Part shown: positions 36,636 through 62,274 of the stretch, in pieces
Layout of the letters: each line of letters opens with the position of its first letter
How positions within the stretch are numbered: the first letter of the stretch is position 1
From: Escherichia coli O157:H7
Lineage (GTDB): Bacteria > Pseudomonadota > Gammaproteobacteria > Enterobacterales > Enterobacteriaceae
Direction: 5' to 3' (one strand)
Length of the DNA stretch: 64,000 nt
Assembly: GCF_013167455.1 (NCBI RefSeq)
Contig: NZ_CP038328.1
The notes under the pieces: model-generated
The model's input: the letters and a program-made list of their open reading frames with translations, nothing else
Told to the model about the DNA's origin: nothing
Database searches by the model: none
Program-made: the position numbers and the translations under genes

Positions 36636-37418
36636 ATGAACAAAGAAACCGTTTCAATAATTATGCCCGTTTACAATGGGGCCAAAACTATAATCTCATC
36701 AGTAGAATCAATTATACATCAATCTTATCAAGATTTTGTTTTGTATATCATTGACGATTGTAGCACCGATGATACATTTTCATTAATCAACAGTCGATAC
36801 AAAAACAATCAGAAAATAAGAATATTGCGTAACAAGACAAATTTAGGTGTTGCAGAAAGTCGAAATTATGGAATAGAAATGGCCACGGGGAAATATATTT
36901 CTTTTTGTGATGCGGATGATTTGTGGCACGAGAAAAAATTAGAGCGTCAAATCGAAGTGTTAAATAATGAATGTGTAGATGTGGTATGTTCTAATTATTA
37001 TGTTATAGATAACAAAAGAAATATTGTTGGCGAAGTTAATGCTCCTCATGTGATAAATTATAGAAAAATGCTCATGAAAAACTACATAGGGAATTTGACA
37101 GGAATCTATAATGCCAACAAATTGGGTAAGTTTTATCAAAAAAAGATTGGTCACGAGGATTATTTGATGTGGCTGGAAATAATTAATAAAACAAATGGTG
37201 CTATTTGTATTCAAGATAATCTGGCGTATTACATGCGTTCAAATAATTCACTATCGGGTAATAAAATTAAAGCTGCAAAATGGACATGGAGTATATATAG
37301 AGAACATTTACATTTGTCCTTTCCAAAAACATTATATTATTTTTTATTATATGCTTCAAATGGAGTCATGAAAAAAATAACACATTCACTATTAAGGAGA
37401 AAGGAGACTAAAAAGTGA
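36636..37418 (+). CDS. wbdN: O-antigen glycosyltransferase (GT2)
   Basis: 260 aa; GT2 signature (VSIIMPVYNG, DDCSTD, DADD); AT-rich codon usage; first gene after galF in the O157-type order. Confidence 0.8.
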   Translation: MNKETVSIIMPVYNGAKTIISSVESIIHQSYQDFVLYIIDDCSTDDTFSLINSRYKNNQKIRILRNKTNLGVAESRNYGIEMATGKYISFCDADDLWHEKKLERQIEVLNNECVDVVCSNYYVIDNKRNIVGEVNAPHVINYRKMLMKNYIGNLTGIYNANKLGKFYQKKIGHEDYLMWLEIINKTNGAICIQDNLAYYMRSNNSLSGNKIKAAKWTWSIYREHLHLSFPKTLYYFLLYASNGVMKKITHSLLRRKETKK

Positions 37419-38599
37419 AGTCAGCGGCTAAGTTGATTTTTTTATTCCTATTTACACTTTATAGTCTCCAGTTGTATGGGGTTATCATAGATGATCGTAT
37501 AACAAATTTTGATACAAAGGTATTAACTAGTATTATAATTATATTTCAGATTTTTTTTGTTTTATTATTTTATCTAACGATTATAAATGAAAGAAAACAG
37601 CAGAAAAAATTTATCGTGAACTGGGAGCTAAAGTTAATACTCGTTTTCCTTTTTGTGACTATAGAAATTGCTGCTGTAGTTTTATTTCTTAAAGAAGGTA
37701 TTCCTATATTTGATGATGATCCAGGGGGGGCTAAACTTAGAATAGCTGAAGGTAATGGACTTTACATTAGATATATTAAGTATTTTGGTAATATAGTTGT
37801 GTTTGCATTAATTATTCTTTATGATGAGCATAAATTCAAACAGAGGACCATCATATTTGTATATTTTACAACGATTGCTTTATTTGGTTATCGTTCTGAA
37901 TTGGTGTTGCTCATTCTTCAATATATATTGATTACCAATATCCTGTCAAAGGATAACCGTAATCCTAAAATAAAAAGAATAATAGGGTATTTTTTATTGG
38001 TAGGGGTTGTATGCTCGTTGTTTTATCTAAGTTTAGGACAAGACGGAGAACAAAATGACTCATATAATAATATGTTAAGGATAATTAATAGGTTAACAAT
38101 AGAGCAAGTTGAAAGTGTTCCATATGTTGTTTCTGAATCTATTAAGAACGATTTCTTTCCGACACCAGAGTTAGAAAAGGAATTAAAAGCAATAATAAAT
38201 AGAATACAGGGAATAAAGCATCAAGACTTATTTTATGGAGAACGGTTACATAAACAAGTATTTGGAGACATGGGAGCAAATTTTTTATCAGTTACTACGT
38301 ATGGAGCAGAACTGTTAGTTTTTTTTGGTTTTCTCTGTGTATTCATTATCCCTTTAGGGATATATATACCTTTTTATCTTTTAAAGAGAATGAAAAAAAC
38401 CCATAGCTCGATAAATTGCGCATTCTATTCATATATCATTATGATTTTATTGCAATACTTAGTGGCTGGGAATGCATCGGCCTTCTTTTTTGGTCCTTTT
38501 CTCTCCGTATTGATAATGTGTACTCCTCTGATCTTATTGCATGATACGTTAAAGAGATTATCACGAAATGAAAATATCAGTTATAACTGTGACTTATAA
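37415..38599 (+). CDS. wzy: O-antigen polymerase Wzy
   Basis: 394 aa, very hydrophobic polytopic protein, AT-rich, GTG start overlapping wbdN. Confidence 0.75.
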   Translation: MKSAAKLIFLFLFTLYSLQLYGVIIDDRITNFDTKVLTSIIIIFQIFFVLLFYLTIINERKQQKKFIVNWELKLILVFLFVTIEIAAVVLFLKEGIPIFDDDPGGAKLRIAEGNGLYIRYIKYFGNIVVFALIILYDEHKFKQRTIIFVYFTTIALFGYRSELVLLILQYILITNILSKDNRNPKIKRIIGYFLLVGVVCSLFYLSLGQDGEQNDSYNNMLRIINRLTIEQVESVPYVVSESIKNDFFPTPELEKELKAIINRIQGIKHQDLFYGERLHKQVFGDMGANFLSVTTYGAELLVFFGFLCVFIIPLGIYIPFYLLKRMKKTHSSINCAFYSYIIMILLQYLVAGNASAFFFGPFLSVLIMCTPLILLHDTLKRLSRNENISYNCDL

Positions 38600-39314
38600 T
38601 AATGCTGAAGGGTTAGAAAAAACTTTAAGTAGTTTATCAATTTTAAAAATAAAACCTTTTGAGATTATTATAGTTGATGGCGGCTCTACAGATGGAACGA
38701 ATCGTGTCATTAGTAGATTTACTAGTATGAATATTACACATGTTTATGAAAAAGATGAAGGGATATATGATGCGATGAATAAGGGCCGAATGTTGGCCAA
38801 AGGCGACTTAATACATTATTTAAACGCCGGCGATAGCGTAATTGGAGATATATATAAAAATATCAAAGAGCCATGTTTGATTAAAGTTGGCCTTTTCGAA
38901 AATGATAAACTTCTGGGATTTTCTTCTATAACCCATTCAAATACAGGGTATTGTCATCAAGGGGTGATTTTCCCAAAGAATCATTCAGAATATGATCTAA
39001 GGTATAAAATATGTGCTGATTATAAGCTTATTCAAGAGGTGTTTCCTGAAGGGTTAAGATCTCTATCTTTGATTACTTCGGGTTATGTAAAATATGATAT
39101 GGGGGGAGTATCTTCAAAAAAAAGAATTTTAAGAGATAAAGAGCTTGCCAAAATTATGTTTGAAAAAAATAAAAAAAACCTTATTAAGTTTATTCCAATT
39201 TCAATAATCAAAATTTTATTCCCTGAACGTTTAAGAAGAGTATTGCGGAAAATGCAATATATTTGTCTAACTTTATTCTTCATGAAGAATAGTTCACCAT
39301 ATGATAATGAATAA
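38568..39314 (+). CDS. wbdO: O-antigen glycosyltransferase (GT2)
   Basis: 248 aa MKISVITVTYNNAEGLEKTL...IIVDGGSTDGT; GT2 motifs. Confidence 0.78.
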   Translation: MKISVITVTYNNAEGLEKTLSSLSILKIKPFEIIIVDGGSTDGTNRVISRFTSMNITHVYEKDEGIYDAMNKGRMLAKGDLIHYLNAGDSVIGDIYKNIKEPCLIKVGLFENDKLLGFSSITHSNTGYCHQGVIFPKNHSEYDLRYKICADYKLIQEVFPEGLRSLSLITSGYVKYDMGGVSSKKRILRDKELAKIMFEKNKKNLIKFIPISIIKILFPERLRRVLRKMQYICLTLFFMKNSSPYDNE

Positions 39315-40692
39315 AATCAAAAAAATACTTAAATTTTGCACTTTAAAAAAATATGATACATCAAGTGCTTTAGGTAGAGAACAGGAAAGGTACAGGATTA
39401 TATCCTTGTCTGTTATTTCAAGTTTGATTAGTAAAATACTCTCACTACTTTCTCTTATATTAACTGTAAGTTTAACTTTACCTTATTTAGGACAAGAGAG
39501 ATTTGGTGTATGGATGACTATTACCAGTCTTGGTGCTGCTCTGACATTTTTGGACTTAGGTATAGGAAATGCATTAACAAACAGGATCGCACATTCATTT
39601 GCGTGTGGCAAAAATTTAAAGATGAGTCGGCAAATTAGTGGTGGGCTCACTTTGCTGGCTGGATTATCGTTTGTCATAACTGCAATATGCTATATTACTT
39701 CTGGCATGATTGATTGGCAACTAGTAATAAAAGGTATAAACGAGAATGTGTATGCAGAGTTACAACACTCAATTAAAGTCTTTGTAATCATATTTGGACT
39801 TGGAATTTATTCAAATGGTGTGCAAAAAGTTTATATGGGAATACAAAAAGCCTATATAAGTAATATTGTTAATGCCATATTTATATTGTTATCTATTATT
39901 ACTCTAGTAATATCGTCGAAACTACATGCGGGACTACCAGTTTTAATTGTCAGCACTCTTGGTATTCAATACATATCGGGAATCTATTTAACAATTAATC
40001 TTATTATAAAGCGATTAATAAAGTTTACAAAAGTTAACATACATGCTAAAAGAGAAGCTCCATATTTGATATTAAACGGTTTTTTCTTTTTTATTTTACA
40101 GTTAGGCACTCTGGCAACATGGAGTGGTGATAACTTTATAATATCTATAACATTGGGTGTTACTTATGTTGCTGTTTTTAGCATTACACAGAGATTATTT
40201 CAAATATCTACGGTCCCTCTTACGATTTATAACATCCCGTTATGGGCTGCTTATGCAGATGCTCATGCACGCAATGATACTCAATTTATAAAAAAGACGC
40301 TCAGAACATCATTGAAAATAGTGGGTATTTCATCATTCTTATTGGCCTTCATATTAGTAGTGTTCGGTAGTGAAGTCGTTAATATTTGGACAGAAGGAAA
40401 GATTCAGGTACCTCGAACATTCATAATAGCTTATGCTTTATGGTCTGTTATTGATGCTTTTTCGAATACATTTGCAAGCTTTTTAAATGGTTTGAACATA
40501 GTTAAACAACAAATGCTTGCTGTTGTAACATTGATATTGATCGCAATTCCAGCAAAATACATCATAGTTAGCCATTTTGGGTTAACTGTTATGTTGTACT
40601 GCTTCATTTTTATATATATTGTAAATTACTTTATATGGTATAAATGTAGTTTTAAAAAACATATCGATAGACAGTTAAATATAAGAGGATGA
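39301..40692 (+). CDS. wzx: O-antigen flippase Wzx
   Basis: 463 aa polytopic membrane protein; position. Confidence 0.78.
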   Translation: MIMNKIKKILKFCTLKKYDTSSALGREQERYRIISLSVISSLISKILSLLSLILTVSLTLPYLGQERFGVWMTITSLGAALTFLDLGIGNALTNRIAHSFACGKNLKMSRQISGGLTLLAGLSFVITAICYITSGMIDWQLVIKGINENVYAELQHSIKVFVIIFGLGIYSNGVQKVYMGIQKAYISNIVNAIFILLSIITLVISSKLHAGLPVLIVSTLGIQYISGIYLTINLIIKRLIKFTKVNIHAKREAPYLILNGFFFFILQLGTLATWSGDNFIISITLGVTYVAVFSITQRLFQISTVPLTIYNIPLWAAYADAHARNDTQFIKKTLRTSLKIVGISSFLLAFILVVFGSEVVNIWTEGKIQVPRTFIIAYALWSVIDAFSNTFASFLNGLNIVKQQMLAVVTLILIAIPAKYIIVSHFGLTVMLYCFIFIYIVNYFIWYKCSFKKHIDRQLNIRG

Positions 40693-40694
40693 AA

Positions 40695-41789
40695 ATGAAA
40701 TATATACCAGTTTACCAACCGTCATTGACAGGAAAAGAAAAAGAATATGTAAATGAATGTCTGGACTCAACGTGGATTTCATCAAAAGGAAACTATATTC
40801 AGAAGTTTGAAAATAAATTTGCGGAACAAAACCATGTGCAATATGCAACTACTGTAAGTAATGGAACGGTTGCTCTTCATTTAGCTTTGTTAGCGTTAGG
40901 TATATCGGAAGGAGATGAAGTTATTGTTCCAACACTGACATATATAGCATCAGTTAATGCTATAAAATACACAGGAGCCACCCCCATTTTCGTTGATTCA
41001 GATAATGAAACTTGGCAAATGTCTGTTAGTGACATAGAACAAAAAATCACTAATAAAACTAAAGCTATTATGTGTGTCCATTTATACGGACATCCATGTG
41101 ATATGGAACAAATTGTAGAACTGGCCAAAAGTAGAAATTTGTTTGTAATTGAAGATTGCGCTGAAGCCTTTGGTTCTAAATATAAAGGTAAATATGTGGG
41201 AACATTTGGAGATATTTCTACTTTTAGCTTTTTTGGAAATAAAACTATTACTACAGGTGAAGGTGGAATGGTTGTCACGAATGACAAAACACTTTATGAC
41301 CGTTGTTTACATTTTAAAGGCCAAGGATTAGCTGTACATAGGCAATATTGGCATGACGTTATAGGCTACAATTATAGGATGACAAATATCTGCGCTGCTA
41401 TAGGATTAGCCCAGTTAGAACAAGCTGATGATTTTATATCACGAAAACGTGAAATTGCTGATATTTATAAAAAAAATATCAACAGTCTTGTACAAGTCCA
41501 CAAGGAAAGTAAAGATGTTTTTCACACTTATTGGATGGTCTCAATTCTAACTAGGACCGCAGAGGAAAGAGAGGAATTAAGGAATCACCTTGCAGATAAA
41601 CTCATCGAAACAAGGCCAGTTTTTTACCCTGTCCACACGATGCCAATGTACTCGGAAAAATATCAAAAGCACCCTATAGCTGAGGATCTTGGTTGGCGTG
41701 GAATTAATTTACCTAGTTTCCCCAGCCTATCGAATGAGCAAGTTATTTATATTTGTGAATCTATTAACGAATTTTATAGTGATAAATAG
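40695..41789 (+). CDS. per: GDP-perosamine synthase (PLP-dependent DegT/DnrJ/EryC1-family aminotransferase)
   Basis: MKYIPVYQPSLTGKEKEYVNECLDSTWISSKGNYIQKFEN...; aminotransferase fold; the classical O157 rfbE marker position. Confidence 0.88.
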   Translation: MKYIPVYQPSLTGKEKEYVNECLDSTWISSKGNYIQKFENKFAEQNHVQYATTVSNGTVALHLALLALGISEGDEVIVPTLTYIASVNAIKYTGATPIFVDSDNETWQMSVSDIEQKITNKTKAIMCVHLYGHPCDMEQIVELAKSRNLFVIEDCAEAFGSKYKGKYVGTFGDISTFSFFGNKTITTGEGGMVVTNDKTLYDRCLHFKGQGLAVHRQYWHDVIGYNYRMTNICAAIGLAQLEQADDFISRKREIADIYKKNINSLVQVHKESKDVFHTYWMVSILTRTAEEREELRNHLADKLIETRPVFYPVHTMPMYSEKYQKHPIAEDLGWRGINLPSFPSLSNEQVIYICESINEFYSDK

Positions 41790-41813
41790 CCTAAAATATT
41801 GTAAAGGTCATTC

Positions 41814-43028
41814 ATGAAAATTGCGTTGAATTCAGATGGATTTTACGAGTGGGGCGGTGGAATTGATTTTATTAAATATATTCTGTCAATATTAGAAACG
41901 AAACCAGAAATATGTATCGATATTCTTTTACCGAGAAATGATATACATTCTCTTATAAGAGAAAAAGCATTTCCTTTTAAAAGTATATTAAAAGCAATTT
42001 TAAAGAGGGAAAGGCCTCGATGGATTTCATTAAATAGATTTAATGAGCAATACTATAGAGATGCCTTTACACAAAATAATATAGAGACGAATCTTACCTT
42101 TATTAAAAGTAAGAGCTCTGCCTTTTATTCATATTTTGATAGTAGCGATTGTGATGTTATTCTTCCTTGCATGCGTGTTCCTTCGGGAAATTTGAATAAA
42201 AAAGCATGGATTGGTTATATTTATGACTTTCAACACTGTTACTATCCTTCATTTTTTAGTAAGCGAGAAATAGATCAAAGGAATGTGTTTTTTAAATTGA
42301 TGCTCAATTGCGCTAACAATATTATTGTTAATGCACATTCAGTTATTACCGATGCAAATAAATATGTTGGGAATTATTCTGCAAAACTACATTCTCTTCC
42401 ATTTAGTCCATGCCCTCAATTAAAATGGTTCGCTGATTACTCTGGTAATATTGCCAAATATAATATTGACAAGGATTATTTTATAATTTGCAATCAATTT
42501 TGGAAACATAAAGATCATGCAACTGCTTTTAGGGCATTTAAAATTTATACTGAATATAATCCTGATGTTTATTTAGTATGCACGGGAGCTACTCAAGATT
42601 ATCGATTCCCTGGATATTTTAATGAATTGATGGTTTTGGCAAAAAAGCTCGGAATTGAATCGAAAATTAAGATATTAGGGCATATACCTAAACTTGAACA
42701 AATTGAATTAATCAAAAATTGCATTGCTGTAATACAACCAACCTTATTTGAAGGCGGGCCTGGAGGGGGGGTAACATTTGACGCTATTGCATTAGGGAAA
42801 AAAGTTATACTATCTGACATAGATGTCAATAAAGAAGTTAATTGCGGTGATGTATATTTCTTTCAGGCAAAAAACCATTATTCATTAAATGACGCGATGG
42901 TAAAAGCTGATGAATCTAAAATTTTTTATGAACCTACAACTCTGATAGAATTGGGTCTCAAAAGACGCAATGCGTGTGCAGATTTTCTTTTAGATGTTGT
43001 GAAACAAGAAATTGAATCCCGATCTTAA
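41814..43028 (+). CDS. wbdP: O-antigen glycosyltransferase (GT4)
   Basis: 404 aa; GT4-like C-terminal domain; position. Confidence 0.75.
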
Positions 43029-43047
43029 TATATTCAAGAGGTATATA

Positions 43048-44166
43048 ATGACTAAAGTCGCTCTTATTACAGGTGTAACTGGACAAGATGGATCTTATCT
43101 AGCTGAGTTTTTGCTTGATAAAGGGTATGAAGTTCATGGTATCAAACGCCGAGCCTCATCTTTTAATACAGAACGCATAGACCATATTTATCAAGATCCA
43201 CATGGTTCTAACCCAAATTTTCACTTGCACTATGGAGATCTGACTGATTCATCTAACCTCACTAGAATTCTAAAGGAGGTACAGCCAGATGAAGTATATA
43301 ATTTAGCTGCTATGAGTCACGTAGCAGTTTCTTTTGAGTCTCCAGAATATACAGCCGATGTCGATGCAATTGGTACATTACGTTTACTGGAAGCAATTCG
43401 CTTTTTAGGATTGGAAAACAAAACGCGTTTCTATCAAGCTTCAACCTCAGAATTATATGGACTTGTTCAGGAAATCCCTCAAAAAGAATCCACCCCTTTT
43501 TATCCTCGTTCCCCTTATGCAGTTGCAAAACTTTACGCATATTGGATCACGGTAAATTATCGAGAGTCATATGGTATTTATGCATGTAATGGTATATTGT
43601 TCAATCATGAATCTCCACGCCGTGGAGAAACGTTTGTAACAAGGAAAATTACTCGAGGACTTGCAAATATTGCACAAGGCTTGGAATCATGTTTGTATTT
43701 AGGGAATATGGATTCGTTACGAGATTGGGGACATGCAAAAGATTATGTTAGAATGCAATGGTTGATGTTACAACAGGAGCAACCCGAAGATTTTGTGATT
43801 GCAACAGGAGTCCAATACTCAGTCCGTCAGTTTGTCGAAATGGCAGCAGCACAACTTGGTATTAAGATGAGCTTTGTTGGTAAAGGAATCGAAGAAAAAG
43901 GCATTGTAGATTCGGTTGAAGGACAGGATGCTCCAGGTGTGAAACCAGGTGATGTCATTGTTGCTGTTGATCCTCGTTATTTCCGACCAGCTGAAGTTGA
44001 TACTTTGCTTGGAGATCCGAGCAAAGCTAATCTCAAACTTGGTTGGAGACCAGAAATTACTCTTGCTGAAATGATTTCTGAAATGGTTGCCAAAGATCTT
44101 GAAGCCGCTAAAAAACATTCTCTTTTAAAATCGCATGGTTTTTCTGTAAGCTTAGCTCTGGAATGA
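43048..44166 (+). CDS. gmd: GDP-mannose 4,6-dehydratase (O-antigen copy)
   Basis: [50 protein letters not shown]...; protein highly similar to the colanic acid Gmd, but the DNA is AT-rich and diverged. Confidence 0.93.
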
Positions 44167-45134
44167 TGATGAATAAGCAACGTATTTTTATTGCTGGTCA
44201 CCAAGGAATGGTTGGATCAGCTATTACCCGACGCCTCAAACAACGTGATGATGTTGAGTTGGTTTTACGTACTCGGGATGAATTGAACTTGTTGGATAGT
44301 AGCGCTGTTTTGGATTTTTTTTCTTCACAGAAAATCGACCAGGTTTATTTGGCAGCAGCAAAAGTCGGAGGTATTTTAGCTAACAGTTCTTATCCTGCCG
44401 ATTTTATATATGAGAATATAATGATAGAGGCGAATGTCATTCATGCTGCCCACAAAAATAATGTAAATAAACTGCTTTTCCTCGGTTCGTCGTGTATTTA
44501 TCCTAAGTTAGCACACCAACCGATTATGGAAGACGAATTATTACAAGGGAAACTTGAGCCAACAAATGAACCTTATGCTATCGCAAAAATTGCAGGTATT
44601 AAATTATGTGAATCTTATAACCGTCAGTTTGGGCGTGATTACCGTTCAGTAATGCCAACCAATCTTTATGGTCCAAATGACAATTTTCATCCAAGTAATT
44701 CTCATGTGATTCCGGCGCTTTTGCGCCGCTTTCATGATGCTGTGGAAAACAATTCTCCGAATGTTGTTGTTTGGGGAAGTGGTACTCCAAAGCGTGAATT
44801 CTTACATGTAGATGATATGGCTTCTGCAAGCATTTATGTCATGGAGATGCCATACGATATATGGCAAAAAAATACTAAAGTAATGTTGTCTCATATCAAT
44901 ATTGGAACAGGTATTGACTGCACGATTTGTGAGCTTGCGGAAACAATAGCAAAAGTTGTAGGTTATAAAGGGCATATTACGTTCGATACAACAAAGCCCG
45001 ATGGAGCCCCTCGAAAACTACTTGATGTAACGCTTCTTCATCAACTAGGTTGGAATCATAAAATTACCCTTCACAAGGGTCTTGAAAATACATACAACTG
45101 GTTTCTTGAAAACCAACTTCAATATCGGGGGTAA
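44163..45134 (+). CDS. fcl: GDP-L-fucose synthase-like reductase (O-antigen copy)
   Basis: 323 aa [46 protein letters not shown]... Confidence 0.9.
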
Positions 45135-45136
45135 TA

Positions 45137-45646
45137 ATGTTTTTACATTCCCAAGACTTTGCCACAATTGTAAGGTCTACTCCTCTTATTTCTATAGATT
45201 TGATTGTGGAAAACGAGTTTGGCGAAATTTTGCTAGGAAAACGAATCAACCGCCCGGCACAGGGCTATTGGTTCGTTCCTGGTGGTAGGGTGTTGAAAGA
45301 TGAAAAATTGCAGACAGCCTTTGAACGATTGACAGAAATTGAACTAGGAATTCGTTTGCCTCTCTCTGTGGGTAAGTTTTATGGTATCTGGCAGCACTTC
45401 TACGAAGACAATAGTATGGGGGGAGACTTTTCAACGCATTATATAGTTATAGCATTCCTTCTTAAATTACAACCAAACATTTTGAAATTACCGAAGTCAC
45501 AACATAATGCTTATTGCTGGCTATCGCGAGCAAAGCTGATAAATGATGACGATGTGCATTATAATTGTCGCGCATATTTTAACAATAAAACAAATGATGC
45601 GATTGGCTTAGATAATAAGGATATAATATGTCTGATGCGCCAATAA
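45137..45646 (+). CDS. wbdQ: GDP-mannose mannosyl hydrolase (Nudix; O-antigen copy)
   Basis: 169 aa [50 protein letters not shown]... Confidence 0.88.
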
Positions 45647-47076
45647 TTGCTGTAGTTATGGCCGGTGGTACAGGCAGTCGTCTTTGGCCACTTTCTCGTG
45701 AACTATATCCAAAGCAGTTTTTACAACTCTCTGGTGATAACACCTTGTTACAAACGACTTTGCTACGACTTTCAGGCCTATCATGTCAAAAACCATTAGT
45801 GATAACAAATGAACAGCATCGCTTTGTTGTGGCTGAACAGTTAAGGGAAATAAATAAATTAAATGGTAATATTATTCTAGAACCATGCGGGCGAAATACT
45901 GCACCAGCAATAGCGATATCTGCGTTTCATGCGTTAAAACGTAATCCTCAGGAAGATCCATTGCTTCTAGTTCTTGCGGCAGACCACGTTATAGCTAAAG
46001 AAAGTGTTTTCTGTGATGCTATTAAAAATGCAACTCCCATCGCTAATCAAGGTAAAATTGTAACGTTTGGAATTATACCAGAATATGCTGAAACTGGTTA
46101 TGGGTATATTGAGAGAGGTGAACTATCTGTACCGCTTCAAGGGCATGAAAATACTGGTTTTTATTATGTAAATAAGTTTGTCGAAAAGCCTAATCGTGAA
46201 ACCGCAGAATTGTATATGACTTCTGGTAATCACTATTGGAATAGTGGAATATTCATGTTTAAGGCATCTGTTTATCTTGAGGAATTGAGAAAATTTAGAC
46301 CTGACATTTACAATGTTTGTGAACAGGTTGCCTCATCCTCATACATTGATCTAGATTTTATTCGATTATCAAAAGAACAATTTCAAGATTGTCCTGCTGA
46401 ATCTATTGATTTTGCTGTAATGGAAAAAACAGAAAAATGTGTTGTATGCCCTGTTGATATTGGTTGGAGTGACGTTGGATCTTGGCAATCGTTATGGGAC
46501 ATTAGTCTAAAATCGAAAACAGGAGATGTATGTAAAGGTGATATATTAACCTATGATACTAAGAATAATTATATCTACTCTGAGTCAGCGTTGGTAGCCG
46601 CCATTGGAATTGAAGATATGGTTATCGTGCAAACTAAAGATGCCGTTCTTGTGTCTAAAAAGAGTGATGTACAGCATGTAAAAAAAATAGTCGAAATGCT
46701 TAAATTGCAGCAACGTACAGAGTATATTAGTCATCGTGAAGTTTTCCGACCATGGGGAAAATTTGATTCGATTGACCAAGGTGAGCGATACAAAGTCAAG
46801 AAAATTATTGTGAAACCTGGTGAGGGGCTTTCTTTAAGGATGCATCACCATCGTTCTGAACATTGGATCGTGCTTTCTGGTACAGCAAAAGTAACCCTTG
46901 GCGATAAAACTAAACTAGTCACCGCAAATGAATCGATATACATTCCCCTTGGCGCAGCGTATAGTCTTGAGAATCCGGGCATAATCCCTCTTAATCTTAT
47001 TGAAGTCAGTTCAGGGGATTATTTGGGAGAGGATGATATTATAAGACAGAAAGAACGTTACAAACATGAAGATTAA
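45628..47076 (+). CDS. manC: Mannose-1-phosphate guanylyltransferase (O-antigen copy)
   Basis: 482 aa [24 protein letters not shown]...; AT-rich DNA unlike cpsB. Confidence 0.92.
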
Positions 47077-47079
47077 CAT

Positions 47080-48450
47080 ATGAAATCTTTAACCTGCTTT
47101 AAAGCCTATGATATTCGCGGGAAATTAGGCGAAGAACTGAATGAAGATATTGCCTGGCGCATTGGGCGTGCCTATGGCGAATTTCTCAAACCGAAAACCA
47201 TTGTTTTAGGCGGTGATGTCCGCCTCACCAGCGAAGCGTTAAAACTGGCGCTTGCGAAAGGTTTACAGGATGCGGGCGTCGATGTGCTGGATATCGGTAT
47301 GTCCGGCACCGAAGAGATCTATTTCGCCACGTTCCATCTCGGAGTGGATGGCGGCATCGAAGTTACCGCCAGCCATAACCCGATGGATTACAACGGCATG
47401 AAGCTGGTGCGCGAAGGGGCTCGCCCGATCAGCGGTGATACCGGACTGCGCGATGTCCAGCGTCTGGCAGAAGCCAATGACTTCCCTCCTGTCGATGAAA
47501 CCAAACGTGGTCGCTATCAGCAAATCAATCTGCGTGACGCTTACGTTGATCACCTGTTCGGTTATATCAACGTCAAAAACCTCACGCCGCTCAAGCTGGT
47601 GATCAACTCCGGGAACGGCGCAGCGGGTCCGGTGGTGGACGCCATTGAAGCCCGATTTAAAGCCCTCGGCGCACCGGTGGAATTAATCAAAGTACACAAC
47701 ACGCCGGACGGCAATTTCCCCAACGGTATTCCTAACCCGCTGCTGCCGGAATGCCGCGACGACACCCGTAATGCGGTCATCAAACACGGCGCGGATATGG
47801 GCATTGCCTTTGATGGCGATTTTGACCGCTGTTTCCTGTTTGACGAAAAAGGGCAGTTTATCGAGGGCTACTACATTGTCGGCCTGCTGGCAGAAGCGTT
47901 CCTCGAAAAAAATCCCGGCGCGAAGATCATCCACGATCCACGTCTCTCCTGGAACACCGTTGATGTGGTGACTGCCGCAGGCGGCACCCCGGTAATGTCG
48001 AAAACCGGACACGCCTTTATTAAAGAACGTATGCGCAAGGAAGACGCCATCTACGGTGGCGAAATGAGCGCTCACCATTACTTCCGTGATTTCGCTTACT
48101 GCGACAGCGGCATGATCCCGTGGCTGCTGGTCGCCGAACTGGTGTGCCTGAAAGGAAAAACGCTGGGCGAAATGGTGCGCGACCGGATGGCGGCGTTTCC
48201 GGCAAGCGGTGAGATCAACAGCAAACTGGCGCAACCCGTTGAGGCAATTAATCGCGTGGAACAGCATTTTAGCCGCGAGGCGCTGGCGGTGGATCGCACC
48301 GATGGCATCAGCATGACCTTTGCCGACTGGCGCTTTAACCTGCGCTCCTCCAACACCGAACCGGTGGTGCGGTTGAATGTGGAATCACGCGGTGATGTAA
48401 AGCTAATGGAAAAGAAAACTAAAGCTCTTCTTAAATTGCTAAGTGAGTGA
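47080..48450 (+). CDS. manB: Phosphomannomutase (O-antigen copy; near-identical to cpsG at DNA level except the extreme 5' and 3' ends)
   Basis: 456 aa [29 protein letters not shown]...; high-GC body matching cpsG; the last ~20 codons are AT-rich and divergent (...[19 protein letters not shown]). Confidence 0.93.
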
Positions 48451-48689
48451 TTATTTACATTAATCATTAAGCGTATTTAAGATTATATTAAAGTAATGTT
48501 ATTGCGGTATATGATGAATATGTGGGCTTTTTTATGTATAACGACTATACCGCAACTTTATCTAGGAAAAGATTAATAGAAATAAAGTTTTGTACTGACC
48601 AATTTGCATTTCACGTCACGATTGAGACGTTCCTTTGCTTAAGACATTTTTTCATCGCTTATGTAATAACAAATGTGCCTTATATAAAA

Positions 48690-49650
48690 AGGAGAACAAA
48701 ATGGAACTTAAAATAATTGAGACAATAGATTTTTATTATCCCTGTTTACGATATTATAGCCAAAGTTGTATCCTGCATCAGTCCTGCAATATTTCACGAG
48801 TGCTTTGTTAACTGAATACATGTCTGCCATTTTCCAGATGATAACGACGTCATCGCAATTGATGGTAAAACACTTCGGCACACTTATGACAAGAGTCGTC
48901 GCAGAGGAGTGGTTCATGTCATTAGTGCGTTTCAGCAATGCACAGTCTGGTCCTCGGATAGATCAAGACGGATGAGAAACCTAATGCGTTCACAGTTATT
49001 CATGAACTTTCTAAAATGATGGGTATTAAAGGAAAAATAATCATAACTGATGCGATGGCTTGCCAGAAAGATATTGCAGAGAAGATATAAAAACAGAGAT
49101 GTGATTATTTATTCGCTGTAAAAGGAAATAAGAGTCGGCTTAATAGAGTCTTTGAGGAGATATTTACGCTGAAAGAATTAAATAATCCAAAACATGACAG
49201 TTACGCAATTAGTGAAAAGAGGCACGGCAGAGACGATGTCCGTCTTCATATTGTTTGAGATGCTCCTGATGAGCTTATTGATTTCACGTTTGAATGGAAA
49301 GGGCTGCAGAATTTATGAATGGCAGTCCACTTTCTCTCAATAATAGCAGAGCAAAAGAAAGAATCCGAAATGACGATCAAATATTATATTAGATCTGCTG
49401 CTTTAACCGCAGAGAAGTTCGCCACAGTAAATCGAAATCACTGGCGCATGGAGAATAAGTTGCACAGTAGCCTGATGTGGTAATGAATGAAATCGACTAT
49501 AATATAAGAAGGCGAGTTGCATTCGAATGATTTTCTAGAATGCGGCACATCGCTATTAATATCTGACAATGATAATGTATTCAAGGCAGGATTATCATGT
49601 AAGATGCGAAAAGCAGTCATGGACAGAAACTTCCTAGCGTCAGGCATTGC
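48690..49650 (+). mobile_element. Degenerate H-repeat (ISAs1-family) transposase remnant
   Basis: Frame-hopping translation gives MELK..., [155 protein letters not shown]-repeat-protein blocks interrupted by multiple stops and frameshifts. Confidence 0.8.
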
Positions 49651-49712
49651 AGCGTGCGGGCTTTCATAATCTTGCATTGGTTTTGATAAGATATTTCTTT
49701 GGAGATGGGAAA

Positions 49713-50378
49713 ATGAATTTGTATGGTATTTTTGGTGCTGGAAGTTATGGTAGAGAAACAATACCCATTCTAAATCAACAAATAAAGCAAGAATGTGGTT
49801 CTGACTATGCTCTGGTTTTTGTGGATGATGTTTTGGCAGGAAAGAAAGTTAATGGTTTTGAAGTGCTTTCAACCAACTGCTTTCTAAAAGCCCCTTATTT
49901 AAAAAAGTATTTTAATGTTGCTATTGCTAATGATAAGATACGACAGAGAGTGTCTGAGTCAATATTATTACACGGGGTTGAACCAATAACTATAAAACAT
50001 CCAAATAGCGTTGTTTATGATCATACTATGATAGGTAGTGGCGCTATTATTTCTCCCTTTGTTACAATATCTACTAATACTCATATAGGGAGGTTTTTTC
50101 ATGCAAACATATACTCATACGTTGCACATGATTGTCAAATAGGAGACTATGTTACATTTGCTCCTGGGGCTAAATGTAATGGATATGTTGTTATTGAAGA
50201 CAATGCATATATAGGCTCGGGTGCAGTAATTAAGCAGGGTGTTCCTAATCGCCCACTTATTATTGGCGCGGGAGCCATTATAGGTATGGGGGCTGTTGTC
50301 ACTAAAAGTGTTCCTGCCGGTATAACTGTGTGCGGAAATCCAGCAAGAGAAATGAAAAGATCGCCAACATCTATTTAA
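49713..50378 (+). CDS. wbdR: Hexapeptide-repeat acetyltransferase, probable GDP-perosamine N-acetyltransferase
   Basis: MNLYGIFGAGSYGRETIPIL...; C-terminal left-handed beta-helix repeats; last gene before gnd as in the O157 cluster. Confidence 0.8.
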   Translation: MNLYGIFGAGSYGRETIPILNQQIKQECGSDYALVFVDDVLAGKKVNGFEVLSTNCFLKAPYLKKYFNVAIANDKIRQRVSESILLHGVEPITIKHPNSVVYDHTMIGSGAIISPFVTISTNTHIGRFFHANIYSYVAHDCQIGDYVTFAPGAKCNGYVVIEDNAYIGSGAVIKQGVPNRPLIIGAGAIIGMGAVVTKSVPAGITVCGNPAREMKRSPTSI

Positions 50379-60753: not shown

Positions 60754-61653
60754 TCACTCCATCATCTTCTCAATCGGCAGGACCAGGATTGAACTGGCAC
60801 CCAGCGCTTTCAGTTTTTCCATCGTTTCCCAGAACAGGGTTTCGCTACTGACCATGTGCATCGCTACGCGCTGTTGATCACCCGCCAGCGGCAGAATGGT
60901 TGGGCGTTCGGCACCTGGCAGCAGGGCGATGACTTCATCCAGACGTTGGGTCGGTGCGTGCATCATGATGTATTTTGATTCGCGCGCCTGGATCACACCC
61001 TGAATACGGGTCAGCAGCTTGTCGATCAGTTGCTGTTTGGATTCTTCCATTTCGCCATCGCGTTGTATCAGGCAGGCTTTCGAGCGATAGATAACTTCGA
61101 CTTCGCGCAGGCCGTTTGCTTCCAGCGTGGCACCGGTGGAAACCAGATCGCAAATCGCATCCGCCAGTCCGGCACGCGGGGCGACTTCAACAGAACCGTT
61201 CAGTAAGCAGGATTTAAAAGAGATGCCTTTCTGGTCGAGATAACGCTTGAGCAGGTGAGGATAAGAGGTGGCGATACGTTTACCGTTTAAGGAGAGCGGG
61301 CCGTCCCAGGCATCATCAACCGGCGTTGCCAGCGAAAGACGGCAGCCGCCGAAATCCAGACGACGCAGGGTAAAGTAGCGTGGATCTTCACCCTGGGCGC
61401 GGCGGTTAAGCAGCTCTTCTTCCAGCACGTTTTCGCCGATAATCCCAAGATCTACCACGCCGTCCATTACCAGACCGGGAATGTCGTCGTCACGCACGCG
61501 CAGAATATCAATCGGCATGTTTTCTGCCATCGCGATCAGGCGCTGGGTGTGAAGATTGATTTTAATGCCACAGCGCGCCAGCAATTCGCGAGAGTCATCA
61601 CTTAAACGGCCGGATTTCTGCATAGCTATGCGTAAACGAGTGTTGTCTGTCAT
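60754..61653 (-). CDS. hisG: ATP phosphoribosyltransferase
   Basis: [65 protein letters not shown]... Confidence 0.95.
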
Positions 61654-61700
61654 TTTCTTATTCCTCTTTAAACCTGTCTGAACCGTTATCAACCGCGCAA

Positions 61701-61734
61701 TAAAAAAGCCCCCGGAAGGTGATCTTCCGGGGGC
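61701..61734 (-). terminator. his attenuator terminator hairpin
   Basis: Minus strand GCCCCCGGAAG-atcac-CTTCCGGGGGC followed by TTTTTT, between hisL and hisG. Confidence 0.85.
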
Positions 61735-61798
61735 TTTCTCATGCGTTCATGCACCACTGGAAGATCTGAATGTCTTCCAGCACACATCGCCTGAAAGA

Positions 61799-61849
61799 CT
61801 AGTCAGGATGATGGTGATGATGGTGCTGTTTAAATTGAACGCGTGTCAT
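61799..61849 (-). CDS. hisL: his operon leader peptide
   Basis: Minus-strand ATG ACA CGC GTT CAA TTT AAA CAC CAC CAT CAT CAC CAT CAT CCT GAC TAG = MTRVQFKHHHHHHHPD* with seven consecutive His codons. Confidence 0.95.
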   Translation of the reverse strand: MTRVQFKQHHHHHHPD

Positions 61850-62074
61850 AAAAGTCTCTGTGAATGTTTATTCAACTGATGTCTTTTAACCTAAACCACT
61901 TTCACGTTAGAAAGCAAGGGCTTTTTTATATATTTTATGGCGATGGATTTGTTTAATGAATGAGCGGGGAAAGGAGGGGGCTAAGAGTGACTAGGTTAAA
62001 AAAGTAATCGTGAAAATATGTCATTAAAACCCTCAAGAACATTGTGTTCTGTAACTAAAGTGGGCTTTGTTCCT

Positions 62075-62180
62075 GCCGGATGCGGCGTGAATGCCTTATC
62101 TGGTCTACAAATGTTGCCTAAATTCAATATATTGATGTTTTGTAGGACTAATAAGCGGAGCGCATCAGGCAATGGTATAT
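62075..62180. repeat. REP elements in the hisL-yeeZ intergenic region
   Basis: CCTGCCGGATGCGGCGTGAATGCCTTATCTGG ... GTAGGACTAATAAGCGGAGCGCATCAGGC. Confidence 0.65.
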
Positions 62181-62274
62181 TTGCTAACAGTTTCGATTTC
62201 ATTCATAGAATGAATTGTCAGTTTTGATACGCTAGCGTAGCCTTATAGATCTAAGGTGTATCAGGAGATAACGG

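Follow-up and report, generated by a model that had tools for sequence, protein, structure and literature searches.

The window (the whole 64,000-nt stretch of Escherichia coli O157:H7 DNA that was analysed) carries the his attenuator directly 5′ of hisG and on the same strand, at the head of genes in the order hisGDCBHAFI according to the open reading frame (ORF) list and the O157:H7 annotation. The ORFs of the operon run along the minus strand from 61653 down to 54620, in the order annotated in an identical O157:H7 record and in O55:H7. The first structural gene under the attenuator, hisG, occupies 60754..61653 (-) in the ORF list and is annotated as hisG in the identical record; RefSeq labels the same DNA in O157:H7 PV15-279 as hisL, 'His leader region' and hisG. 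The Rfam model RF00514 (His_leader) matched 61823..61700 (-) at E = 2e-23, its score of 131.6 bits lying far above the gathering score of 49. This match was full-length (model positions 1-126), the Rfam model itself beginning at the His codons. When complete E. coli genomes were searched with a 211-nt leader query, 5,423 of 5,426 contained a match, in every case annotated hisL plus 'His leader region'; those at 100% were O157:H7 strains. The element is the textbook his leader peptide and transcription attenuator, already known and annotated, and its architecture is intact.

The his promoter (61888..61916, minus strand) is identical to that of K-12 and consists of a -35 hexamer TTGCTT (61916..61911), a 17-nt spacer and a -10 hexamer TAGGTT (61893..61888). 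The transcription start was set at about 61881 (-) to give the 180-nt leader length reported in PMC10989985; the numbering used there equals ours minus one, and would move the start 1 nt further downstream. From this start to the end of the terminator U-tract, the leader transcript spans 61702..61881 (-), about 180 nt, and its last base lies 48 nt 5′ of the hisG ATG. The leader-peptide ORF hisL (61799..61849, minus strand) opens with an ATG at 61849 and closes with a TAG at 61801..61799, its 16 codons encoding MTRVQFKQHHHHHHPD. Codon 8 (61826..61828, minus strand) is CAG (Gln), and is followed by the regulatory codons, a run of six His codons (61808..61825, minus strand) reading CAC CAU CAU CAC CAU CAU. 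A simple consensus scan missed both the his promoter, because its -10 TAGGTT is a poor match, and the attenuator terminator, because the A-run pairs with the U-tract. The element was called from the Rfam match and from folding in place of the consensus scan.

Alternative hairpins and the attenuation mechanism

The minimum free energy (MFE) fold of the 180-nt leader, at -70.2 kcal/mol (z = -7.3 against 200 shuffles), contains three hairpins, A:B, C:D and E:F. The pause hairpin A:B lies at 61781..61816 (-) with -12.2 kcal/mol, and its two helices are 91.7% and 97.8% paired across 108 aligned leaders; arm A (61816..61803) overlaps His codons 12-14 as well as the Pro and Asp codons. Hairpin C:D (61757..61780, minus strand; -12.7 kcal/mol, z = -4.1) is 97.7% paired. 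The intrinsic terminator E:F, which is the attenuator proper, was located at 61702..61740 (-) as a 17-bp stem with a 5-nt loop and six U residues (-30.3 kcal/mol, z = -7.5). It is 96.1% paired across the 108 leaders, with compensatory changes at 7 pairs. Two further hairpins make up the antiterminator conformation. The first half is the alternative hairpin B:C (61772..61799, minus strand; -12.1 kcal/mol, z = -3.3), which is 99.4% paired. The second is the antiterminator D:E (61721..61766, minus strand), in which GAUCUUCC pairs with GGAAGAUC (-16.7 kcal/mol including inner pairs, z = -3.2); it is 94.6% paired across the 108 leaders and 3 of its pairs show compensatory changes. Neighbouring hairpins are mutually exclusive because they share an arm.

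The effect of a ribosome was modelled by masking its footprint and folding the leader truncated ahead of F (nt 1-161). With no ribosome, pairing was 0.96 for A:B, 0.98 for C:D and 0.00 for D:E. Placing the A site at His codons 9-13, under the longer of the assumed footprints (leading edge 12 nt beyond it), brought A:B down to 0.05 or below, whilst B:C reached 0.86-0.94 and D:E 0.86-0.98. A leading edge 3 nt shorter gave a mixed result at codons 9-11, with A:B up to 0.35 and D:E down to 0.38. When the full 180-nt leader was folded at equilibrium with the ribosome masked, E:F was favoured at every stall position, and in nt 1-127 at equilibrium C:D beats B:C. Equilibrium folding cannot display a kinetic switch, because E:F always wins and C:D beats B:C, and information was drawn solely from whether A:B is paired and from the folds of the truncated leader. 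Antitermination would be a kinetic outcome, as in the accepted model, and the folds alone do not demonstrate it.

Classical ribosome-mediated attenuation of the his operon is supported, and read-through when charged tRNA-His is low would be expected by analogy. We infer the regulatory behaviour from the systems of K-12 and Salmonella, on the strength of sequence identity, and from the Salmonella work of PMC4046918. In the proposed mechanism, RNA polymerase would start near 61881, transcribe hisL and pause after the A:B hairpin has formed; a ribosome translating hisL would then open A:B and release the polymerase. With charged tRNA-His plentiful, the ribosome should reach the stop codon, so that C:D and then E:F form and transcription ends at 61702. 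With tRNA-His scarce, it would wait on the His codons and cover arm A, leaving B:C and D:E to pair; with D:E paired no terminator would form, and hisGDCBHAFI would be transcribed. The hisL regions of K-12 and Salmonella Typhimurium (RF00514) share with the window the place 5′ of hisG, the promoter, the pause hairpin, segments A-F and the terminator, whereas K-12 differs in having CAC (His) at codon 8 and thus seven consecutive His codons rather than six. The trpL attenuator works on the same principle (PMC1183508): its leader peptide includes codons for the amino acid under control, and its RNA forms a pause hairpin and, as alternatives, an antiterminator or a terminator hairpin. However, trpL contains two Trp codons and its RNA is divided into four segments, whereas his has six or seven His codons and six segments; unlike trp, his has the extra C:D hairpin and no repressor.

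An earlier, sequence-only reading of 61701-61849 is borne out in part by these data: the element, its place, its hairpin and its mode of control stand, whilst the peptide sequence and the His count it gave do not (see below). The span it proposed brackets the element correctly. Its claim that leader and attenuator are intact agrees with the Rfam score, with the presence of all five hairpins and with a transcript one base removed from that of K-12. A minus-strand GC-rich hairpin with a U-tract before hisG, as it had described, was recovered as E:F. Classical attenuation control, which it also proposed, is in keeping with the Rfam match, the identity with K-12 bar one base, the conserved hairpins and the RefSeq annotation. 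It had attributed the absence of hisL from the ORF track to size, and at 16 codons hisL does not appear even in a list whose lower limit is 20 aa. Lastly, it had suggested folding as a check for mutually exclusive hairpins, whose absence would have counted against it; they are present, with arms shared between neighbours.

Conservation across Enterobacterales

One genome per species was scanned with the anchor CAYCAYCCNGAYTAGTCTTNCAGG, leaving the number of His codons free, and at least 120 leaders were obtained. The alignment was made from 107 distinct leaders plus the window, giving 108. Across these, pairing in the terminator conformation is 95.8%, with compensatory changes at 10 pairs, and it fell to 40-59% when the partner was slid by 1-3 columns. 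The antiterminator conformation is 97.2% paired, far above its slid controls, with 3 compensatory pairs, all in D:E. Compensatory changes were found in A:B, C:D, D:E and E:F. The B arm is partly fixed by the search pattern and therefore its invariance proves nothing. RNAalifold, run on the gapped alignment of 108 sequences, returned B:C and E:F alone, missing A:B, C:D, D:E and the long-range helix described below. Therefore, the support for these four rests on explicit pair counts.

The longest His run among the 120 leaders listed was six codons in 77, seven in 25, five in 7 and four in 10, one further leader being incomplete at a contig end. The seven-His leader of the model strains is not the rule, six being the commonest count among the matches listed. 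Several of the leaders listed keep the 16-residue frame with a residue other than His at position 8. The leader of Pluralibacter gergoviae, ...VQFKQHHHHHHPD, has the same Gln as the window (...FKQHHHHHHPD), and that of Enterobacter cloacae has Asn (...FKNHHHHHHPD). Both resemble the window in the 16-residue frame, the non-His residue at position 8, the six His followed by Pro and Asp, and the hairpins that follow downstream. However, in these two species six His is a species-level state, whereas in the window it is derived within E. coli.

Long-range pairing within the leader

The MFE fold also contains a long-range helix between hisL and the spacer separating D from E. Its X arm, GCGUUCA (61836..61842, minus strand; hisL codons 3-5), pairs with the Y arm, UGAACGC (61743..61749, minus strand), with P of about 1.0. 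Across the 108 leaders 90.6% of X:Y cells are paired, whilst the slid-partner control for the whole long-range pair set gave 21-45%. Moreover, 5 of 6 pairs are changed on both sides, compensated variants coming from different genera (GCATTC:GAATGC, n = 10; GCGCTC:GAGCGT, n = 5; GTATTC:GAATAC, n = 3; ACATTC:GAATGT, n = 1). In the aligned set the helix is absent from Aeromonas and Zobellella leaders. It lies outside the Rfam RF00514 model.

Next to X:Y, a second helix was predicted between window positions 61821-61826 and 61751-61756 (-), in which the His-codon run pairs with UGGUGC (61756..61751). The pairing is 69.5% across the 108 leaders. A 2023 study (PMC10989985) proposed that DnaA binds the leader RNA, and the two arms of this helix correspond to its 'rDnaA boxes' 1/2 and 3. 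Mutations in the partner stretch de-attenuate, and DnaA-RNA binding was not seen in vitro; the authors rate their own evidence as inconclusive. Loss of the His-run:UGGUGC RNA helix could explain the de-attenuating mutations equally well, and the X:Y element too could account for those in the 'rDnaA boxes' without DnaA.

The X arm begins 8 nt and ends 14 nt past the A of the start codon, and from this position a role in blocking hisL initiation or in stabilising a termination-prone fold is plausible. As a speculation, once the spacer has been made, X:Y might shut off hisL initiation, lock the termination-prone fold, or both. That the Enterobacterales his leader holds a fourth functional RNA element, namely a 6-7 bp X:Y helix flanked by the His-run:UGGUGC helix, is a tentative suggestion to which we give rather long odds. 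A tRNA-His-like fold of the leader is said to have been drawn by Ames et al. in 1983 (PNAS 80:5240), and it may already show the X:Y helix.

The O157:H7 allele of hisL and its distribution

A 321-nt alignment of the window with K-12, which starts 5′ of the promoter and runs into the first codons of hisG, shows three differing bases: one 5′ of the -35, the third base of hisL codon 8 and one between the hisG Shine-Dalgarno sequence and ATG. Within the leader transcript the codon 8 base (61826; G on the minus strand) is the sole difference, and promoter, pause region and terminator are identical. The sequence-only reading had quoted the peptide as MTRVQFKHHHHHHHPD, with seven consecutive His codons. 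This is the K-12 allele and is wrong for the window, where translation gives MTRVQFKQHHHHHHPD and six consecutive codons were counted (61825..61808), codon 8 being the CAG. The leader sequence quoted there is hereby corrected: intact is not the same as K-12-identical, and the window has an O157:H7 allele in which Gln replaces the first His. RefSeq gives the two peptides separate accessions, WP_010904803.1 for O157:H7 hisL and WP_001364200.1 for that of K-12.

The distribution of alleles was determined with 71-nt queries centred on the variant base. The exact sequence of the window was found in 299 of 5,402 complete E. coli genomes, and that of K-12 in 4,405 of 5,404 genomes. The exact-variant carriers among the matches listed were all O157:H7-type strains. 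The O157-specific gene rfbE, which lies in the same window (40689..41789), is present in 305 genomes; one strain, 7386Nal, carries the hisL variant and is also among the rfbE carriers listed. Because of these near-equal counts (299 against 305) and the strains sampled, we read the codon 8 base as a probable marker of the O157:H7 lineage, essentially confined to one clonal lineage, a reading drawn from sampled matches rather than a full cross-tabulation. A one-base lineage marker would thereby be located in a regulatory peptide. No discussion of the O157:H7 hisL allele was found in the literature searched.

Other alleles show that the length of the His run is polymorphic within E. coli, from five to ten. 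In O55:H7 CB9615 hisL encodes MTRVQFKHRHHHHHPD (L124:17167-17217), in which the second His is replaced by Arg (H9R) to leave His, Arg and five His; its exact 71-nt sequence occurs in 13 of 5,403 genomes. O157:H7 is held to descend from the O55:H7 lineage. Inheritance of the window's allele from an O55:H7 ancestor was considered and rejected, as O55:H7 has H9R instead, along with yefM-yoeB. Adjacent early His codons have, on comparison of the alleles, evidently been hit independently in the two lineages. The hisL of O111:H8 strain 8B (L125:313-372) is 9 nt longer than that of K-12 and was translated as MTRVQFKHHHHHHHHHHPD, with ten consecutive His. With the 71-nt K-12 query, strains EC31, P21_SE1_04.20, TL-14 and O111:H8 8E matched in two pieces over 80 nt, just as 8B does, and probably carry the ten-His allele as well. 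Like the window's allele, those of O55:H7 and O111:H8 8B are natural variants of the His run within the species, and the remainder of the attenuator is conserved in them, although the mutations differ (H9R and a 9-nt expansion). The run behaves like a short tandem repeat, subject to expansion as well as decay, and the O157:H7 allele is within normal natural variation.

Does glutamine at codon 8 matter?

Under each of three assumed footprints, A:B keeps a pairing of 0.87-0.91 while the A site is at codon 8. It declines from an A site at codon 9-10, is lost at about codons 11-14 and is gone at 13-14. A ribosome waiting at codon 8 cannot open A:B because it is too far upstream; a wait there would not free B in these folds, and presumably would not release the paused polymerase. 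CAG is an ordinary sense codon and so no new stall site would be expected. In Salmonella, replacing any one of the seven His codons by a stop codon (UAG) relieves attenuation, with the largest effect at His4-His6, and a leader with Ser-Ser at His4-His5 is still responsive to His starvation (PMC4046918). Near-neutrality is further suggested by the predominance of six-His runs among the leaders listed, by the same Gln in Pluralibacter gergoviae and by the ten-His and H9R alleles within E. coli. The codon 8 change would at most slightly lower sensitivity to histidine limitation. For a known his attenuator whose hairpins are unchanged, we infer that the Gln allele is very probably near-neutral.

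An alternative is that the Gln codon measurably resets the attenuator, so that deeper depletion of tRNA-His is needed for derepression in O157:H7; this would be a lineage-specific change of set-point, either adaptive or mildly deleterious. Such an effect is anticipated by a model in which sensitivity is tied to the number and fraction of regulatory codons (PMC1183508), and some de-attenuation follows when UAG takes the place of any of the seven His codons, even His1 (PMC4046918). The independent loss of the second His codon in O55:H7, which makes two early-His hits in one clade, also speaks for it. However, six-His leaders are the majority state among the Enterobacterales leaders listed, and codon 8 is too far upstream for a waiting ribosome to open A:B; a delay there would probably precede release of the polymerase. 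Moreover, O157:H7 is clonal, and drift or hitch-hiking would be enough for fixation without selection. On balance we regard a reset as unlikely. Should the allele indeed alter the set-point of histidine biosynthesis, a major lineage of pathogens would show a physiological difference that is small but can be tested.

Less likely still, indeed improbable, is that the base change works at the level of RNA structure or of a bound factor and not through codon identity, thereby altering basal termination, either by a stronger or re-registered His-run:UGGUGC helix or by a weakened rDnaA box 1/2. In the fold of the naked RNA, the O157 base (G at nt 56 of the leader) creates an additional G-C pair and moves this helix into another register, the MFE dropping from -67.3 kcal/mol for the K-12 allele to -70.2 for the O157 allele, with the new G56-C131 pair at P = 0.997; re-registering of a helix that flanks X:Y could shift basal attenuation. 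Yet the new pair is present in 3 of the 108 leaders, in a helix that is itself incompletely conserved (69.5% paired), and the region would be covered by the translating ribosome during the decision. As for a bound factor, the changed base falls inside rDnaA box 1/2 and mutations in the partner stretch de-attenuate, against which stands the absence of DnaA-RNA binding in vitro (all PMC10989985). Lastly, a sequencing or assembly error concealing a true seven-His sequence, for which the mismatch with the K-12 reference alone could be cited, was ruled out, as 299 independently assembled complete genomes share the exact 71-nt variant and RefSeq gives the peptide its own accession. Near-neutrality of the Gln allele is the reading we prefer.

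Surrounding region

Between hisL and yeeZ, both K-12 and O55:H7 carry the toxin-antitoxin pair yefM-yoeB. In the window this pair is absent from 61850-62274, and a 425-bp spacer with REP-like repeats is found instead. The arrangement lacking yefM-yoeB occurs in 1,192 of 5,416 E. coli genomes and is thus a common polymorphism. On the other side of the attenuator, the base that differs from K-12 between the hisG Shine-Dalgarno sequence and ATG is at position 61657 (GAGGAATAAGAAAATG in the window against ...TAACAAAATG in K-12), and O55:H7 shares the G. Further along the window, 36636-50378 holds the O157 O-antigen gene cluster, which establishes that the DNA comes from an O157:H7-type chromosome and in which rfbE (40689-41789) is 100% identical to O157:H7 records, with colanic-acid genes upstream of the cluster.
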